Shown here: piece after piece, positions 1 to 13,952 of the stretch | Numbering within the stretch: position 1 is the stretch's first letter | Layout: each line of letters begins with the position of its first letter | Assembly: GCA_026396675.1 (NCBI GenBank) | Contig: JAPLWI010000008.1 | Coordinates: forward strand, 42,883 to 106,882 | DNA length: 64,000 nucleotides | Reading direction: 5' to 3' | Source of the DNA: Candidatus Kaiserbacteria bacterium | GTDB lineage: Bacteria > Patescibacteriota > Minisyncoccia > Phycocordibacterales > Phycocordibacteraceae | The notes under the pieces: model-generated | Databases searched by the model: none | Told to the model about the DNA's origin: nothing | The model's input: only the letters and a program-made list of their open reading frames with translations | Made by a program: the position numbers and the translations under genes

Positions 1-1030
<1,030 letters not shown>

Positions 1031-7164: not shown

Positions 7165-7860
7165 TCAAGCTGCCTTCGGCCCGCCTCGCCTTGACGGGCG
7201 AGTCGAGGCGGGCCAGCGGAGGGCGGCTGGTGGCCAGAGTTTCGTGAGAGGATGATTTGTGCAGTCGTGTGAGCGCGCTGGACAAACATATCGGCCATAC
7301 AGAACAAGGCCATTGTTCACATATTTCCAGTCATTTTTTGGAATGAGCATTTCCAAATCTTTCGAGATTTTTGTCGGGTTATTGTTGTCGGTAAGGTCAA
7401 AGCGTTTTGCAAAACGCATTACATGCGTGTCAGTGGCTATTCCCTCCCAAATATTGTATAGCTCGCCGAGGACGACATGGGCGGTTTTATAGCCGATGCC
7501 GGACAGTCCAATGAGCTCCGTTTCACTACGCGGCACAATGCTGTTATATTTCTCTTTGATTATTTTTGCCGCGCCGATAATTGCCTTTGCTTTATTTCGG
7601 AAAAATGGAATGGAAGAAATCTCTTTCATAAAAATCGCTGGGTTTGCTTCCGCAAAATCTTTCACTGTTTTATATTTCTTGAAAAGTTTTGCCGTACATT
7701 CATTTACTTTTTTATCTGTACATTGTGCCGAAAGAATAACTGCAACAACAAATTGAAACGGCGTTTGATATGTGAGTTCACTTTTTGGTTTTGGATAGGT
7801 TTTCTTCAAATAAGCAACGATTTTTTTCGCTCGATGCTCCCGTTCAATACTATTCGTCAT
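7165..7860 (-). CDS. nth: endonuclease III (Nth, HhH-GPD DNA glycosylase) with a degenerate Fe-S cluster loop
   Basis: The HhH-GPD core (…LIGLSGIGYKTAHVVLGELYN…ATDTHVMRF…) is present. The C-terminal CX6CX2CX5C motif reads C-PARSHD-C-TN-H-PLTKL-W, so ligands 3 and 4 are His and Trp. The ORF then runs about 20 codons into a GC-rich hairpin. Confidence 0.75.
   Translation of the reverse strand: MTNSIEREHRAKKIVAYLKKTYPKPKSELTYQTPFQFVVAVILSAQCTDKKVNECTAKLFKKYKTVKDFAEANPAIFMKEISSIPFFRNKAKAIIGAAKIIKEKYNSIVPRSETELIGLSGIGYKTAHVVLGELYNIWEGIATDTHVMRFAKRFDLTDNNNPTKISKDLEMLIPKNDWKYVNNGLVLYGRYVCPARSHDCTNHPLTKLWPPAALRWPASTRPSRRGGPKAA
7180..7216. other. GC-rich inverted repeat GGCCCGCCTCG ... CGAGGCGGGCC (11-bp stem plus a nested CTCGCC/GGCGAG stem) inside the 3' end of the nth ORF
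   Basis: The inverted repeat was read directly from the sequence. It is terminator-like, but it is embedded in the coding tail PPAALRWPASTRPSRRGGPKAA. Confidence 0.5.
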
Positions 7861-9020
7861 AGATTAAGCGTCTGTTCTTCGTGAGGAAAAGCGAAATTGA
7901 AGAAAATAACCAGTAGCGCGCCCATAGAAAAAGTAGTGAGAAGAATCACGATGAAAAGACCGATGAATGGAATGAGCGCAATGAGAGAAAATGCGAGCAT
8001 GCCGAGAACGCCATCATGCCACAATACTGTTTCGCGATGCGCGAAACGATTCGCGAACATACCGCCGAGAAGAATACCTGCATACATAAGCGACAGAAAC
8101 ACAATAAAAGCATATGCAATGAAGGCAAGGAGTGCGATACCAATACCGACGAAAGTAAGTGCGAGAACGATGAGTAAAATCGGTGTAGCTACAAGCATAG
8201 CAAAACCGAGCAGAAGAGTTAATAAGATACTGCGTACACGCCTTCTGCTGGCACGTTCGACTACTGCTTCTGCGAGGCGTGGGAAAAGACCGGCGAGTAG
8301 ACCGGCGAGAATAAGAACGCTCAAAATGCGCACAAAGAGAAAGAATCCGACGCTCGCGAGTGCAAGTGTTCGTGAAGTCCCAGCATCCGGCAGATATGAA
8401 ATGTTCGTATATGTGGTGCCACCGACTATAGTAGCGGATACCGGAATAGATGCCGCTTCGGGTGCTTCGTAAGATAATGCCCCCATAATTTTAGTTCCAG
8501 GTGCGATAGTGACTCGACCGCTCGCGACAATGTTTACATTATTTGCGAAGTCACCAGCAAGTGACACATTGTTTCCATAAATCGTAACCGGACCTGAAGC
8601 GCCGTTTGTGAGAGTGGTGTTCAAGGCAATGATAAAAACATTTCCACCTGCCCGTCCGGAATCATTCACGGAAATACCGAGAGCAACCAGATCGCCTGCA
8701 ATTGGTTTCTCAATTGCGATACTCCCACCGACGGCTCTAAAATCGCCCATTACCGGCGCGCGCGAATCAATGGAACCAGCGAAAAGAAGTTCGTCGCCGG
8801 TTACTGGCGCGGCAGAAACAATATTGCCGCCAACTGCCGATAGATCCCCTTTCACTGGCGCGGTAATCACAACAGAAATGCCGGCAGTATACGCATTGCC
8901 TGGCGAAGAACTAGCTGTGTTAAGCGAGCGTGCCGCTGAAAAAGATGCTGGAGCATTCGCCGCGAGAGCACTCGCTGGAATGAGGAACGAGATGAATAGA
9001 AAAAGAAAAAAACGATTCAT
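7857..9020 (-). CDS. secreted/membrane protein: signal peptide, bactofilin-like beta-helical repeats, C-terminal polytopic membrane domain (387 aa)
   Basis: The N-terminus MNRFFLFLFISFLIPASALAANA is a signal peptide. Repeated GDLSAVGGNIVSAAPVTGDELLFAGSIDSRAPVMGDFRAVGGSIAIEKPIAGDLVALGISV units follow, then about six hydrophobic helices. The gene overlaps nth by 4 nt. Confidence 0.5.
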   Translation of the reverse strand: MNRFFLFLFISFLIPASALAANAPASFSAARSLNTASSSPGNAYTAGISVVITAPVKGDLSAVGGNIVSAAPVTGDELLFAGSIDSRAPVMGDFRAVGGSIAIEKPIAGDLVALGISVNDSGRAGGNVFIIALNTTLTNGASGPVTIYGNNVSLAGDFANNVNIVASGRVTIAPGTKIMGALSYEAPEAASIPVSATIVGGTTYTNISYLPDAGTSRTLALASVGFFLFVRILSVLILAGLLAGLFPRLAEAVVERASRRRVRSILLTLLLGFAMLVATPILLIVLALTFVGIGIALLAFIAYAFIVFLSLMYAGILLGGMFANRFAHRETVLWHDGVLGMLAFSLIALIPFIGLFIVILLTTFSMGALLVIFFNFAFPHEEQTLNL

Positions 9021-9028
9021 AGAAATTA

Positions 9029-9481
9029 TTATGAGGGTGGACGGTAGAGAGAACTTTTTCGTAATGGTTCAATGAGACATGCAAAAATGAAAATACCGAT
9101 TGCCACACCAGCGGAAGCCAAGCAATAGACACAAAGTGCCTTTACAACAAAAAATTCAATGAAAGTAAGATAAAACGATATGGCGATACCGACAAGCGAG
9201 ACACCTTGAAGAATGCGCCGCAAAAGTCGATCAAAGATTACGAGCTCAAGCGCGGCAACAATAAACATGAAAGCGCAAAAAATGACGCCGTACTCGGCAA
9301 GCGACACGCCAAAAAATCGCGCATACTGACTTGCGGCAACGATGTTACAACCGGAAAGATTCTCAACATTACAGAGAAGCGGAGTATTGCTCGCCTCATG
9401 CTGAGCGAGATATATCGAGTCAGAGAGGCCGCAAAAAGCGAGAATTAGTATACAGACGACACCTGCACGCTTCATACCCAC
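9029..9481 (-). CDS. vitamin K epoxide reductase (VKOR)-family membrane thiol oxidoreductase (150 aa)
   Basis: Four or five TM helices, a loop Cys pair (LLCNVENLSGCN) and a membrane CVYC (CxxC) motif match the VKOR/DsbB-like architecture. Confidence 0.5.
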   Translation of the reverse strand: MGMKRAGVVCILILAFCGLSDSIYLAQHEASNTPLLCNVENLSGCNIVAASQYARFFGVSLAEYGVIFCAFMFIVAALELVIFDRLLRRILQGVSLVGIAISFYLTFIEFFVVKALCVYCLASAGVAIGIFIFACLIEPLRKSSLYRPPS

Positions 9482-9574
9482 AGAATACGCGTCTTGTTGG
9501 CTTGGTGCAATCTGCTTAATTCAGGTGCGCCAGTTTAATAAATGGGCTCCTTTTGTTTTTGCGAATTATTTTTT

Positions 9575-10231
9575 CTACAGTATATCCTTATATTTCTCCT
9601 TTCCAGCATCTACCCTCTTTTTTTGCTCATATTCTTCTTTCCTCTTTTCCTCTTCTTCTCCCTTTTTTCTTTCTTGCATCTCTTTATATTTTGGACTTTC
9701 TTCCCATTCTTTCTTTTTCTTTTCTTCTTCTTCCTCTCTTCTCTTCTCCTCTTCTTCTGCACGAATTTCTTTATCAGCTTCCTCTTCAAAAGAATTAAAA
9801 ATACCGCCGTCCTGAAGATTTGCTACATCTCGATATTTATTAAACAACTCAATAGCAAGTTCGTCATCGATTTGTTCCCCGTCAATTTCTCCATGTGCTT
9901 TATATTTTGACCAGTCGTGTTTTGCCTGTTGATCAAGTTCGATATAAATTTGATGTTCGCCTATCTTACCTTCCAACACTCCATTATTGCCAGTTTGAAA
10001 TTCTTCATCATAAAGTCTTTGTAAATCTTTTTTTGTTATATCTTTTTTGATATTACTTGCAATTCTCAAATCAAATTTACCTTCCTTTAAATCTCTAAAT
10101 AATTCTCTCCCGATATTTTCTATCGCCTTTTCTCTCATACTAGACATTTTTTCTTCTTTTTTGTTCATCATTCCCTTGGCTTCATTTAACTCTTTCGTAG
10201 ATGGGCGATATTGTTCTGGTGATTTTGTCAT
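9575..10231 (-). CDS. hypothetical protein with an extreme Glu/Lys-rich C-terminal tail (218 aa)
   Basis: The C-terminal tail reads …EEEADKEIRAEEEEKRREEEEEKKKKEWEESPKYKEMQERKKGEEEEKRKEEYEQKKR…. The coding strand is a ~200-nt purine tract, so the plus strand shows a pyrimidine tract. Confidence 0.45.
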   Translation of the reverse strand: MTKSPEQYRPSTKELNEAKGMMNKKEEKMSSMREKAIENIGRELFRDLKEGKFDLRIASNIKKDITKKDLQRLYDEEFQTGNNGVLEGKIGEHQIYIELDQQAKHDWSKYKAHGEIDGEQIDDELAIELFNKYRDVANLQDGGIFNSFEEEADKEIRAEEEEKRREEEEEKKKKEWEESPKYKEMQERKKGEEEEKRKEEYEQKKRVDAGKEKYKDIL

Positions 10232-10279
10232 ATGCTCGCAATTCTACCCCCCCCATTTTGCTGTCAATGAATTACTTGT

Positions 10280-11164
10280 TTAAAAACCACTGTCTTCAAT
10301 ATCGCGGAGTTGCTGATAGGGACGAATATTCTTGCACAAATCGCTTTGGGTTGTTGTGGCATCTCGTTTGCTCGTCGAGGCAACTACTGCGAGTGGCGGT
10401 GGAAGCCCATTTTTAGGACCTCCACGGAAATTCCAAGGAAACACAAAGCAAGCATGAAAGGATGAACTTGTTGCTGAGGCAGAAGTGCCTGTCTGCACAG
10501 GCAATCCTACAACACGCACGATACCGCCGCGAGCAATAGTAGTTAGATCTGGATTGCGAAGATCACTTCCGTCGATTTCCCACATATGCCCAGAAAAATC
10601 ACGGAGAGTGAAGGAAGCAAGGTCTGATGCAACATTTATAACTTCCCCTCCCAAAAGCCCCTTCTCCGGCGCGAGCCACCATGATTGTTGTTGAACGAGA
10701 ACAGGACGATAAAAAGGAGGGTGATCGCCGATTGCCTCATCAATTCTGCCGCCAAAACCAATCGCATACAGACCTGTACCGAGAGTGAGTGAAGTAAGTA
10801 CTGCCCCGAGAGCGATGATAGGAAGTGAATACCGATATCCGTGATTGGTTCGACGAATATTTATATATCCAATACAAATGAAAAGGGCGAGTGTTCCTAT
10901 CCAAACGAATGGTGCGGCGGCTAGAAAGAATGAGAAAAAGGTGGTGTGCGTCGCGGCTGAGAGACGCCAATCGACATTCGCGATTTCAAAGAATGTCGCT
11001 GAACAAGCTAGCGCGCCAAATGCCACAGCAAGCGCTCCTAATAGCCAGAAAAAATAATTTTTGATTACGAATTCCCAGCGCGGGCGTGGTACGAGATGTT
11101 CATTCTTGATGTAGTCGAACACTCGCTCTGCGATATGTGCTTTGTTGTGATTATTTGTGTTCAT
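10280..11164 (-). CDS. membrane protein, probable cognate anti-sigma factor (294 aa)
   Basis: Its start overlaps the stop of the ECF sigma gene by 4 nt. It has a short cytoplasmic N-terminus, three TM helices and a ~160-aa extracytoplasmic domain. No conserved anti-sigma motif was recognised. Confidence 0.4.
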   Translation of the reverse strand: MNTNNHNKAHIAERVFDYIKNEHLVPRPRWEFVIKNYFFWLLGALAVAFGALACSATFFEIANVDWRLSAATHTTFFSFFLAAAPFVWIGTLALFICIGYINIRRTNHGYRYSLPIIALGAVLTSLTLGTGLYAIGFGGRIDEAIGDHPPFYRPVLVQQQSWWLAPEKGLLGGEVINVASDLASFTLRDFSGHMWEIDGSDLRNPDLTTIARGGIVRVVGLPVQTGTSASATSSSFHACFVFPWNFRGGPKNGLPPPLAVVASTSKRDATTTQSDLCKNIRPYQQLRDIEDSGF

Positions 11165-11781
11165 GATGAAAAAGTTTTTGGAAGTGCATCCCGTAATGCA
11201 TGCTTGGCACGGTAGAGGAGTGTCGAGACCGTTCCCACCGGTACTTGTAAAATATCAGACATCTCCGCATAAGAGCGATTCTCGAAAAATCTTAATGTGA
11301 GAGCATCGCGATAGGATTGCGAGAGTGTTTCAAGTGCTTTCGTTAATTCCTTTTGCGAGAGACGCGTCTCTGCGAGGAGAGAAGTGTCCGCTGTCTCATC
11401 CTGCAATTCTGTAATAAGTGCTTCTCCTTCTTCGTTTAGGACAACCTGCGGTCGAGCGTGTTTCGCACGGAAGAAACTCATTGCTTCGTTATGCACTATG
11501 CGATACATCCACGAAGAGAATGCTAGCGTCGGATCAAAACTATTGAGATTTTTATATGCTTTAATGAAAGCATTCTGCAAAATATCTTCCCGATCCTCTA
11601 GAAGCCCGACACCTAGCCGCTCTAAGTACCGCATTAGCTTCGCTTCGTACCGTTTAATAAGAAACACGAATGCTTCCTTATCGAGGAGCGTGCGGCGAAC
11701 AATTTCCTCATCTGATGCATCATCACCCTGTCGAGGGTGCATTTCGAGTGTCATGACTCCATATCTTACTACGCTTTCCAC
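11161..11781 (-). CDS. ECF-type RNA polymerase sigma-70 factor (206 aa)
   Basis: Region 2 (ILQNAFIKAYKNLNSFDPTLAFSSWMYRIVHNEAMSFFR) and region 4 (SYAEMSDILQVPVGTVSTLLYRAKHALRD) signatures are both present. Confidence 0.75.
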   Translation of the reverse strand: MESVVRYGVMTLEMHPRQGDDASDEEIVRRTLLDKEAFVFLIKRYEAKLMRYLERLGVGLLEDREDILQNAFIKAYKNLNSFDPTLAFSSWMYRIVHNEAMSFFRAKHARPQVVLNEEGEALITELQDETADTSLLAETRLSQKELTKALETLSQSYRDALTLRFFENRSYAEMSDILQVPVGTVSTLLYRAKHALRDALPKTFSS

Positions 11782-11832: not shown

Positions 11833-12432
11833 ATGTTTCCATCACTTTTCCTTTCCCATTTTATTGGTGGCGCGGTTGGTGGCACGGCCGTTATTCTGGC
11901 ACTCACGATTATCCTCTGTGCATTTATTCTTGAAGATGCGACAACGGTTATTGTCGGAGTGCTTGTGGCAGATGGGATTATTTCTATCCCGCTCGCAATC
12001 GTTTCAATCTATATTGGGATAATAATCGGGGATGCCGTTCTTTATTCTGTCGGTTCTCTCGCGCGAACCCATCCGCGACTTGCTCATTATATTGATCATG
12101 ATTTTACGGCGCCATTTCGTTCGTGGCTTGAGAAGCGCTACGCGCTGACGATACTTTCCGGTCATTTTGTGCCGGGGCTGCGATTCACGACTTATATCGC
12201 AAGCGGTTTTTTCCGTTCCAAGCTCTCCACATACATTCTTATGGCAATTGTCGGGAGTTTGATTTGGGAAACGATTCTTTTTTCTGCAGCATTTTGGTTT
12301 GGTAGCTTTACCTCCGAATGGATTGGTACGGCTCGCTGGGGACTTGCACTTGTGTTCCTTCTCATTCCCTTCTTCATCGGCCGGTACAACTTACGTGCGT
12401 ATCAGGCGAAGAAAAACGGTGGCGAAGAGTAG
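11833..12432 (+). CDS. DedA / SNARE-associated (VTT domain) family membrane protein (199 aa)
   Basis: FILEDATTVIVGVLVADG and the following TM pattern resemble DedA-family proteins. Confidence 0.55.
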   Translation: MFPSLFLSHFIGGAVGGTAVILALTIILCAFILEDATTVIVGVLVADGIISIPLAIVSIYIGIIIGDAVLYSVGSLARTHPRLAHYIDHDFTAPFRSWLEKRYALTILSGHFVPGLRFTTYIASGFFRSKLSTYILMAIVGSLIWETILFSAAFWFGSFTSEWIGTARWGLALVFLLIPFFIGRYNLRAYQAKKNGGEE

Positions 12433-13034: not shown

Positions 13035-13952
13035 ATGAGACAAAAAATTATTCGTGCGGGAGTTGCACTCGTGCTGGTGGGAGCTGCCGGCGCCGCTGGA
13101 TATTCTCTCGGTAACGGAAATGTATCGGCACAAACAGCTAATATCTCTATTCCTGCACAGACCGTTGCAGCACCGGCGGCAAATTCTGTTCGTGTGATTT
13201 ATAGTTTGGACCAAAAACAAAATGATAAAGAAATCATCGCTCTTATTGACGCGGCGAAAAGCCACGTCTATTTCGCGATATATACATTTACTCTTCCAAG
13301 CATCGCCGATGCTCTTATTGAAGCGAAGAAACGCGGTATTGATGTGAAAGGGATCATAGATTCAGAGCAAAGCAGTAACAGCTACGGCGCGCCAATTACT
13401 GCAAAATTGCTTGCTGCAGGCATTCCGGTCGTGACCGAGAAACACACAACTGGCAACGGCATTATGCATATCAAAGCAATCGTTACCGACTCGGCATATG
13501 CAATCGGTAGTTATAATTGGACCAGTTCAGCGACAAATTTGAATGATGAAATCCTTGAAATTGGCACTGGTTCAGAACTTCGACAGACCTATGAAAACAT
13601 TTTGAAACGTTTACTTGACGCCTATAAAGGCAACGCGGCCGCGGGAGCGGCCGCGCCCGTTTCAATCGGAACTATCGACTACACTGAGGCAGGAGCACAC
13701 ATCGGCGCGCTTGCCTCCGTGCGCGGCATGCTTGTTGACGCCTACACATCAGCGAGTGGCACGGTCTTTTTGGACTTCTGCAAGAGTTATAAAACCTGCA
13801 CATTCTCCGGAGTCATCTTCGCCGACGATGTGAAGAAATTTGGCGACCTTTCTCGCTACAACGGAACGACCGTCACTCTCACCGGCAAAATTTCATCGTA
13901 TCAAGGCAAGGCCGAAATCATTCTCTCCGACCCGAGCCAGATTTCAAAATAG
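13035..13952 (+). CDS. secreted phospholipase-D-family (single HKD motif, Nuc-like) nuclease/phosphodiesterase (305 aa)
   Basis: A signal peptide MRQKIIRAGVALVLVGAAGAAG is followed by the HKD motif MHIKAIVTDSAYAIGSYNWTSSATNLNDE (HxKx4Dx6GSxN). Confidence 0.65.
   Translation: MRQKIIRAGVALVLVGAAGAAGYSLGNGNVSAQTANISIPAQTVAAPAANSVRVIYSLDQKQNDKEIIALIDAAKSHVYFAIYTFTLPSIADALIEAKKRGIDVKGIIDSEQSSNSYGAPITAKLLAAGIPVVTEKHTTGNGIMHIKAIVTDSAYAIGSYNWTSSATNLNDEILEIGTGSELRQTYENILKRLLDAYKGNAAAGAAAPVSIGTIDYTEAGAHIGALASVRGMLVDAYTSASGTVFLDFCKSYKTCTFSGVIFADDVKKFGDLSRYNGTTVTLTGKISSYQGKAEIILSDPSQISK

Follow-up and report, generated by a model that had tools for sequence, protein, structure and literature searches.

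An ECF sigma factor and its constant membrane partner in Candidatus Kaiserbacteria lie beside a thiol-redox operon that probably forms a separate transcription unit

The window analyzed in this study is a 64-kb stretch (64,000 nucleotides) of contig JAPLWI010000008.1, part of a metagenome-assembled genome of Candidatus Kaiserbacteria, a member of the candidate phyla radiation (CPR, Patescibacteria). Its proteins correspond exactly to NTU85_ locus tags, and the species was assembled from ERR15302205 and SRR20698650. Its minus strand carries six co-directional open reading frames (ORFs), which encode an extracytoplasmic function (ECF) sigma factor, a 294-aa membrane protein (hereafter the partner), a 218-aa E/K-rich protein, a VKOR-family thiol oxidoreductase (vkor), a 387-aa protein annotated as DUF8173 and an endonuclease III homolog (nth). 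Successive genes are separated by -4, 48, 93, 8, and -4 nt. An earlier reading of the letters without database searches (the sequence-only reading) had located the same six ORFs at the coordinates that we confirm here and had taken them for one regulon serving the construction or repair of an oxidatively folded surface structure. We find that they probably represent three neighboring transcription units instead. The first would comprise a promoter P1, the sigma gene and the partner gene, forming an autoregulated ECF sigma module. The second would be the E/K-rich orphan, a recently inserted low-GC gene under a sigma-70-like promoter of its own. The third would comprise a housekeeping-type promoter (Pv), vkor, the DUF8173 gene and nth; its mRNA is probably leaderless, and it may gain some sigma-dependent expression through read-through from P1. 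Rather than a tidy envelope regulon, the stretch would combine a sigma module with a recent orphan insertion and a thiol-redox/repair operon under a constitutive promoter, which would be syntenic by coincidence. For comparison we used 65 loci encoding relatives of the partner (32 from genomes and 33 from metagenomes), and all promoters, terminators and RNA elements described below were called by comparative sequence conservation.

The first gene (11161..11754, minus strand) encodes an ECF sigma factor, as the sequence-only reading had claimed; it belongs to group 4 and probably has 197 aa. The protein contains sigma-2 and sigma-4 domains only (Pfam Sigma70_r2, PF04542, 1e-13; Sigma70_r4_2, PF08281, 8e-14) and scores well over the family threshold of TIGR02937 (97.4 bits against a cut-off of 42.9). 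The start was moved, since the mechanical ORF reaches a GTG at 11781 but the conserved promoter falls inside this longer frame; translation probably begins at the ATG at 11754, and gene callers likewise give a protein of 197 aa. No equivalog model (SigW, RpoE, and others) reached its cut-off with this protein. The SigW model matches it at 3e-29, and its closest solved relatives are AlgU-type (6in7), SigW (5wuq, 4e-22), and RpoE (1or7) sigma factors. Literature searches on ECF sigma factors in Parcubacteria found no report, and the ECF reclassification paper makes no mention of CPR taxa.

Upstream of the sigma gene we found an exact match to a SigW-like motif, GAAAY-N16/17-CGTA, which is common to the sigma-gene upstream regions of the relatives. 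This putative promoter P1 (11770..11795, minus strand) consists of a -35 element GAAAT (11795-11791), a 17-nt spacer and a -10 element CGTA (11773-11770), and thereby shows the AAC-type -35 and CGT-type -10 elements before the sigma factor's own gene that are characteristic of autoregulation. The B. subtilis SigW consensus is TGAAAC-N16-CGTA, and a SigW-like motif fits a sigma factor with SigW, RpoE, and AlgU as best matches. The motif occupies the same place in 44 of 56 related loci at a position weight matrix (PWM) score of at least 12, the background being 58 sites at or above 12 in 1.23 Mb, i.e., 0.005 sites per 110 nt. P1 has the highest score of the window, 23.7 (shuffled sequences mostly reach 12-17, with one outlier of 21.9), a value that is inflated because P1 itself belonged to the 18 sites from which the matrix was built. 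The second and third matches in the window (7530, inside nth, and 35529, inside a 772-aa ORF) were rejected as chance occurrences, being intragenic, at shuffle level and not conserved. Both the strict pattern and the PWM failed to find any ECF-type site in the window before the E/K-rich gene, vkor or the DUF8173 gene. With the promoter motif of the sigma factor given, its regulon becomes predictable in any CPR genome.

The second gene (10280..11164, minus strand) overlaps the sigma gene by 4 nt, is translationally coupled to it and encodes the partner, which is probably the cognate, non-canonical anti-sigma factor. As is general for anti-sigma factors, it is encoded beside its sigma factor: an ECF sigma gene lies immediately upstream in 30 of 30 genome loci and 31 of 31 metagenome loci with upstream DNA. 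A lack of co-occurrence between the membrane protein homologs and ECF sigma genes had been named beforehand as one outcome that would refute the sequence-only reading, and co-occurrence was found in all 61 loci. The pairing holds at 34-37% identity in the Uhrbacteria-like loci L028-L030 and L032, where the sigma/partner pair is followed by convergent or unrelated genes. Conservation of the cluster as a whole, which the sequence-only reading had proposed to check, is partial: the pair always stays together, but the E/K-rich gene occurs in none of the relatives, and vkor, the DUF8173 gene and nth are absent from the Uhrbacteria-like loci. As a genomic association, the sigma/anti-sigma idea is well supported by this adjacency and by the conserved ECF-type promoter before the sigma gene. 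With its homologs, the partner makes up an uncharacterized family, widespread and unannotated (2,370 clusters at 50% identity, E≤1e-3), that can be described as the constant partner of an ECF sigma factor.

The architecture of the partner agrees with the earlier description of three transmembrane (TM) segments and an extracytoplasmic part of about 160 aa, as three hydrophobic segments are present and a C-terminal part of 159 aa is predicted to lie outside. AlphaFold2 (AF2) models place a cytoplasmic helix at residues 8-21, followed by three TM helices, a cytoplasmic loop RRTxHGYRY and an extracytoplasmic OB-fold at about residues 165-245. The cytoplasmic N-terminus comprises about 35 aa with one helix, and TM1 starts near residue 29 (moderate confidence). 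The most conserved residues cluster at three places, namely PRPRW-F before TM1, T-x-x-G-Y-R-Y in the TM2-TM3 loop and the OB domain. Cysteines are found only at positions 54, 97, 239, and 277, leaving the cytoplasmic N-terminus Cys-free, and C277, in the tail, is the second member of the co-conserved pair C239/C277. Among 124 family representatives, 101 have both cysteines of this pair, 17 have neither, six have only a downstream Cys and none has C239 only. The two are thus gained and lost together, which suggests that they form a disulfide.

The zinc-binding anti-sigma motif, correctly reported as missing by the sequence-only reading, is indeed not detectable: neither zf-HC2 nor any other anti-sigma family of Pfam or NCBIfam matches the partner even at E≤10, and there is no HxxxCxxC motif. 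The PDB holds no sequence relative, searches of PHROGs, Pfam, and NCBIfam gave nothing usable, and ten of the more diverse family members have no Pfam match above the curated cut-off. This lack of a detectable anti-sigma domain weighs against the proposed role, as do the single short cytoplasmic helix, where a class I anti-sigma factor has a cytoplasmic bundle of three to four helices before its TM segment, and the moderate quality of the AF2 models (mean predicted local distance difference test score, pLDDT, 68-69). The partner could instead be another co-expressed membrane effector or sensor, such as a target or a positive regulator of the sigma factor, with the latter controlled otherwise, e.g., by transcription alone; ECF groups without anti-sigma factors do exist. 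We consider this alternative unlikely in view of the strict adjacency and the start/stop overlap with the sigma gene throughout the 61 loci. Moreover, some of the most invariant residues of the partner (PRPRW-F and T-x-x-G-Y-R-Y) face the cytoplasm, its overall layout, with the N-terminus inside, a membrane anchor and a sensor domain outside, is that of membrane anti-sigma factors, and anti-sigma domains of one or two helices are established for the CnrY-type class II.

As an anti-sigma factor, the partner would use its short helix at the N-terminus, together with the invariant loop T-x-x-G-Y-R-Y on the cytoplasmic side, to hold the sigma factor at the membrane, and would sense something outside the cell through the disulfide-stabilized OB-fold domain. 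Upon a signal it would be inactivated, probably by proteolysis, and the freed sigma factor would transcribe from P1. The closest known counterpart is SigW-RsiW of B. subtilis, an ECF30-type sigma factor with a membrane anti-sigma factor under intramembrane proteolysis. SigW is among the best sequence matches of the sigma factor, the two promoter motifs resemble each other, and both systems have an autoregulated sigma gene followed by an overlapping gene for a membrane protein with an outside domain. The partner differs from RsiW in having no zinc-binding class I domain but a cytoplasmic N-terminus of about 35 aa with one helix, three TM segments rather than one, and an OB-fold with a Cys pair as outside domain. 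By analogy with class II proteins of the CnrY type, binding of an ECF sigma factor might require no more than a small cytoplasmic N-terminal segment before a membrane anchor; CnrY, however, is a single-pass protein of about 95 aa that works together with CnrX, while the partner is polytopic and has its own outside domain.

The third gene (9575..10231, minus strand) occupies a variable slot behind the partner gene and encodes the charged protein of the sequence-only reading, whose description stands: the 218-aa product has an E/K/R-rich tail of about 60 residues (approximately residues 157-218), no TM segment and no Cys. Its only match among 5.8 billion proteins is itself, none of the 65 related loci contains a homolog, and Pfam, NCBIfam, and PHROGs gave no match. 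Two other samples yielded near-identical contigs (L033 and L034) that also carry the gene. It has a GC content of 33.6% (26.9% at third codon positions), while its neighbors have 44-49%. A sigma-70-like promoter can be read directly upstream (10241..10267, minus strand), with TTGACA at 10267-10262, a 15-nt spacer and TAGAAT at 10246-10241, 9 nt from the ATG; our consensus scan missed it because it requires a spacer of 16-18 nt. By composition and distribution, the orphan gene is a recent insertion and no part of the conserved system.

The fourth gene, vkor (9029..9475, minus strand), encodes a protein of 148 aa from the probable ATG at 9475 (ORF 9029-9481). Its VKOR identity, including the CVYC active site and the loop Cys pair named by the sequence-only reading, holds: the protein matches PF07884 at 3e-22 (79.5 bits against a cut-off of 27.5), has four hydrophobic segments as expected of the family, and in an alignment with the Synechococcus structures 4nv6/3kp9 its CVYC (117-120) falls on the active-site CxxC and its C37/C45 on the loop Cys pair. 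No fused thioredoxin domain is present. Enrichment of CPR genomes in VKOR and MdbA-like oxidoreductases has been reported (PMC6744442). In a monoderm-like CPR cell, such a stand-alone VKOR (four TM segments, CxxC, loop Cys pair) resembles the MdbA-VKOR pathway of Actinomyces and Corynebacterium, and by this analogy the enzyme probably reoxidizes a separate thioredoxin-fold oxidase. In contrast to that pathway, there is no MdbA/DsbA-like gene (nor any gene for an exported CxxC protein) in the 64-kb window, and vkor lies beside the gene of a Cys-free DUF8173 protein and, in relatives, near peroxiredoxin and Msr genes.

Directly upstream of vkor we found the putative promoter Pv (9482..9510, minus strand), composed of TTGCAC (9510-9505), a 17-nt spacer and TATTCT (9487-9482). 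The window has this element in common with every related locus, about 50 in number, the consensus being TTGC[AG]n-N16/17-(GCG)CGTAT[TC][GC]T with the ATG following after 6-10 nt. Pv fits the pattern TTGnnn-16..18-TAnnnT that precedes groES, infC and ribosomal protein genes in the window, and a similar site precedes tuf. We therefore read Pv as a predicted housekeeping promoter that would make vkor the start of its own transcription unit. Since the vkor ATG follows only 6 nt after the -10 element, the vkor mRNA is probably leaderless or near-leaderless. More generally, the -10 elements of vkor (9475-9487) and of the orphan gene (10231-10246) end 6 and 9 nt before the respective ATG, which implies leaderless or near-leaderless mRNAs for both. 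The string GCGTAT is common to Pv and the -10 region of P1, and Pv was also considered as a second ECF promoter for this reason; this was rejected as the main interpretation, given the -35 element TTGCA/G and the fit to the housekeeping pattern.

The relatives also separate vkor from the sigma operon. In 8-9 of them, a strong terminator (folding free energy, dG, -19 to -32) follows the partner gene and lies between the two. Between the partner gene and vkor lie anywhere from 42 to 5,436 nt, with content that varies from locus to locus. Loci that lack a second sigma-type site within the partner gene (P2, see below) tend to have vkor 42-89 nt past the partner gene, with no terminator, so that read-through from P1 is possible there and in the window.

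These observations bear on the reading of all six genes as one sigma-controlled operon or regulon, with the beta-helical DUF8173 protein as the surface structure and VKOR as its folding catalyst. It is favored by the co-directional arrangement with the gaps given above, and several facts that support it count against three separate units. No terminator was predicted between the partner gene and the next gene in the window or in eight relatives (gaps of 42-89 nt, which in the relatives without P2 leave no room for one), and, more broadly, none in any coding-strand intergenic gap of the cluster; two weak coding-strand terminator-like matches (9272-9299) fall within the vkor coding sequence. Read-through from the sigma promoter into vkor is hence possible. 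The order of the sigma, partner, vkor, DUF8173, and nth genes is kept in nearly all loci of the Kaiserbacteria-like clade, which fits functional linkage as well as inherited synteny. Furthermore, Pv and P1 have the above-mentioned string in common, and promoters and terminators alike are calls from sequence conservation. Nevertheless, we regard a single regulon as improbable and do not find the earlier claim supported. The gene vkor has its own conserved housekeeping-type promoter, terminators follow the partner gene in 8-9 relatives, no ECF-type site precedes the downstream genes, the E/K-rich gene is an orphan, the DUF8173 protein is Cys-free, and distant relatives retain the sigma factor and the partner only. 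The conserved order is not specific evidence, because the flanking infC, PLD, DedA, and RNase J genes are as syntenic as the six genes themselves.

The remaining two genes of the third unit are tightly packed behind vkor, with gaps of 8 and -4 nt. The DUF8173 gene (7857..9020, minus strand) encodes a 387-aa protein with a signal-peptide-like N-terminus, an extracytoplasmic beta-helix at residues 43-206 predicted at pLDDT >90, and a C-terminal hydrophobic, polytopic membrane domain. This part of the sequence-only reading stands; membership in the bactofilins is not borne out, the model PF04519 giving no match even at E≤10. Pfam, NCBIfam, PHROGs, and PDB sequence searches returned nothing usable, while DUF8173 (PF26514) is recorded in precomputed annotation for the exact protein and for 120 of 120 homologs among the matches listed; our own Pfam search gave no PF26514 match, probably for want of that model in the copy used. 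One homolog (P0238) has a precomputed PF04519 hit, and NCBI labels one DUF8173 homolog as ‘polymer-forming cytoskeletal protein’. The beta-helix itself has generic structural neighbors only. A right-handed beta-helix of short repeats is a likeness to bactofilins and to envelope-stress proteins of the LiaG/YvlB type; the window protein differs from bactofilins in the missing PF04519 match, its assignment to DUF8173 and its exported beta-helix fused to a polytopic membrane domain. Since the protein contains no Cys, it cannot be a substrate of the VKOR pathway. Literature searches on DUF8173 found no report.

The nth gene (7165..7860, minus strand) overlaps the DUF8173 gene by 4 nt. Its product reaches 210.6 bits with TIGR01083 (cut-off 211.7) and matches HhH-GPD at 7e-21. 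Of the four cysteines of the [4Fe-4S] cluster (C-x6-C-x2-C-x5-C) it has only C193 and C200, the motif reading C193-x6-C200-x2-H. The nth homolog of L019 (10619-11359) likewise has only two cluster cysteines, and the whole clade may have a cluster-free Nth.

In the genome loci, vkor adjoins the DUF8173 gene in 25 of 27, and a Bcp-type peroxiredoxin is encoded between the DUF8173 gene and nth in 14 of 27; in L019, L021, and L049 the peroxiredoxin replaces DUF8173. The peroxiredoxin loci are L003, L004, L006, L010, L013, L016-L021, L024, L027, L031, L049, and L065. Four loci (L017, L018, L024, and L027) encode MsrB with MsrA just upstream of vkor. With peroxiredoxin, MsrA, and MsrB added near vkor in relatives, the common theme is thiol-redox and oxidative-damage maintenance, which suggests that the vkor neighborhood serves redox repair rather than surface building. 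A Zincin_1 metallopeptidase gene often follows the partner gene and is part of this recurring redox-repair neighborhood.

Most relatives differ from the window at the 3′ end of the partner gene. In 33 of the 55 loci with a complete 3′ end, the second sigma-type site P2 is located about 65 nt before the partner stop codon, always with a 16-nt spacer, and PWM scores at this position are 12-19. The codons that form the motif are unusual. Arg is encoded by CGT in 20 of 26 cases at the motif versus 91 of 400 at other conserved columns (Fisher p 3e-8) and by AGA in 13 of 19 versus 2 of 407 (p 1e-18), and Glu is encoded by GAA in 21 of 21 versus 69 of 135 (p 4e-6). After this Glu, R, T, I or K may follow, but always with a codon of the form A-N-A. 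An origin of P2 as a by-product of peptide conservation (S-E-R...R-S-E) was rejected, as synonymous codons are fixed against the genes' own usage. Loci L029 and L030 have the same unusual -35 element (GTCAG) at P1 and P2.

P2 is accompanied by two hairpins. An 8-bp 5′ hairpin inside the C[KR]GIRPY codons is fully paired in 13 of 17 distinct P2-positive sequences and in none of 22 P2-negative ones. A second hairpin with the loop consensus U[UA]GCGAGC lies just past the partner stop codon, and all of its 12 base pairs covary (covariation score 0.93 versus 0.25 in shuffled alignments), with 81.8% of cells paired versus 45.9% after shuffling and 33-45% when partner columns were slid. A covariance model of this loop hairpin matches only P2-positive loci, plus L024 from outside the training set, and nothing else in 646 kb. 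Taken together, P2 and its two hairpins suggest that in the relatives a small RNA under sigma control overlaps the partner gene at its 3′ end. It would be the first sigma-dependent small RNA proposed for a CPR bacterium, backed by clear covariation. Candidates of about 150 nt are found at L007:8790-8965, L009:8790-8968, and L015:6520-6690, in L016, L019, L043, and L051, and in about 20 more loci. No Rfam family matches at gathering thresholds (permissive thresholds gave only sub-threshold, terminator-driven matches), and a target search in related loci for the loop complement GCTCGC[AT]A found no consistent site.

A known analog is MicL of E. coli, a sigma-E-dependent small RNA whose promoter lies within the coding sequence of cutC (PMC4102768). 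As with MicL, the predicted ECF-type promoter of the relatives sits within a coding sequence, in its 3′ portion, and the structured RNA downstream stops at the gene's terminator; the relatives differ in that the host gene is the sigma factor's own partner, that there is no sequence or Rfam relationship, and that the element is absent from the window. The same elements could also be read as cis elements of the sigma-partner mRNA, acting in 3′-end stability or processing, or as an internal promoter into downstream genes. The Uhrbacteria-like loci L029 and L030, for instance, have a P2-like site before an overlapping downstream ORF but no hairpin, and many P2-positive loci show no strong terminator. 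We find this account doubtful, though not negligible, because P2 and both hairpins occur together in 28 loci while neither hairpin is present in any P2-less locus, and because 8-9 loci have a strong terminator that ends about 90 nt past the partner stop codon and delimits a unit of about 155 nt, which in L009 folds at -81.8 kcal/mol (z = -6.6). The ORF that overlaps the end of the partner gene in L029 encodes a secreted helical protein of 158 aa with no Pfam match.

The window appears to have lost this candidate small RNA. A codon-level comparison places the decayed P2-homologous position at 10340..10372 (minus strand; AGC AAA CGA ... CAA AGC GAT), and the best PWM score in the 110-nt zone before the partner stop codon is 8.1 and not at the P2 position. 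No more than 5/8 of the 5′ hairpin is paired, and the window gives no match to the covariance model of the loop hairpin. Beside the orphan-gene ATG, the letters TTGCGAGC (10234..10241, minus strand) may be a remnant of the hairpin loop whose stem is gone. MicL-like features are thus predicted from sequence in 28 relatives and not in the window. The best reading of the slot is that it ancestrally held a sigma-dependent RNA, which has been replaced here by the orphan gene.

Regulators are scarce in CPR cells, and envelope sensing in them is almost wholly uncharacterized. A more far-reaching interpretation, which we put forward as speculation and hold to be distinctly improbable, is that the sigma-partner module is an extracytoplasmic sensor of thiol or oxidative stress peculiar to CPR. 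The OB-fold of the partner would need a disulfide made by VKOR, and folding failure or oxidants would destroy the partner and release the sigma factor. Once released, the sigma factor would upregulate the operon that encodes it and, in most relatives, switch on the small RNA inside the partner gene; through read-through, expression of the neighboring vkor, DUF8173, peroxiredoxin, and nth repair genes would increase as well. The window would then represent a derived state in which the RNA arm has been replaced by the orphan gene.

The gene next to the sigma gene on its other side is divergent (11833-12432, plus strand) and encodes a membrane protein of the DedA/VTT family that weakly matches the undecaprenyl-phosphate transporter UptA. 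Nearly all Kaiserbacteria-like loci share this arrangement; in the window, the gene has no sigma-type site facing it. Three Uhrbacteria-like loci (L028 at about 6089, L029 at about 4224, and L030 at about 7269) have a third sigma-type site on the opposite strand upstream of the sigma gene, directed toward the divergent gene, which in L029 encodes a secreted YceI-like protein. Further along the window, an exported PLD-like (NucT-type) nuclease with a C-terminal OB-fold-like region is encoded at 13035-13952 (plus strand) and, in most relatives, is syntenic with this neighborhood.

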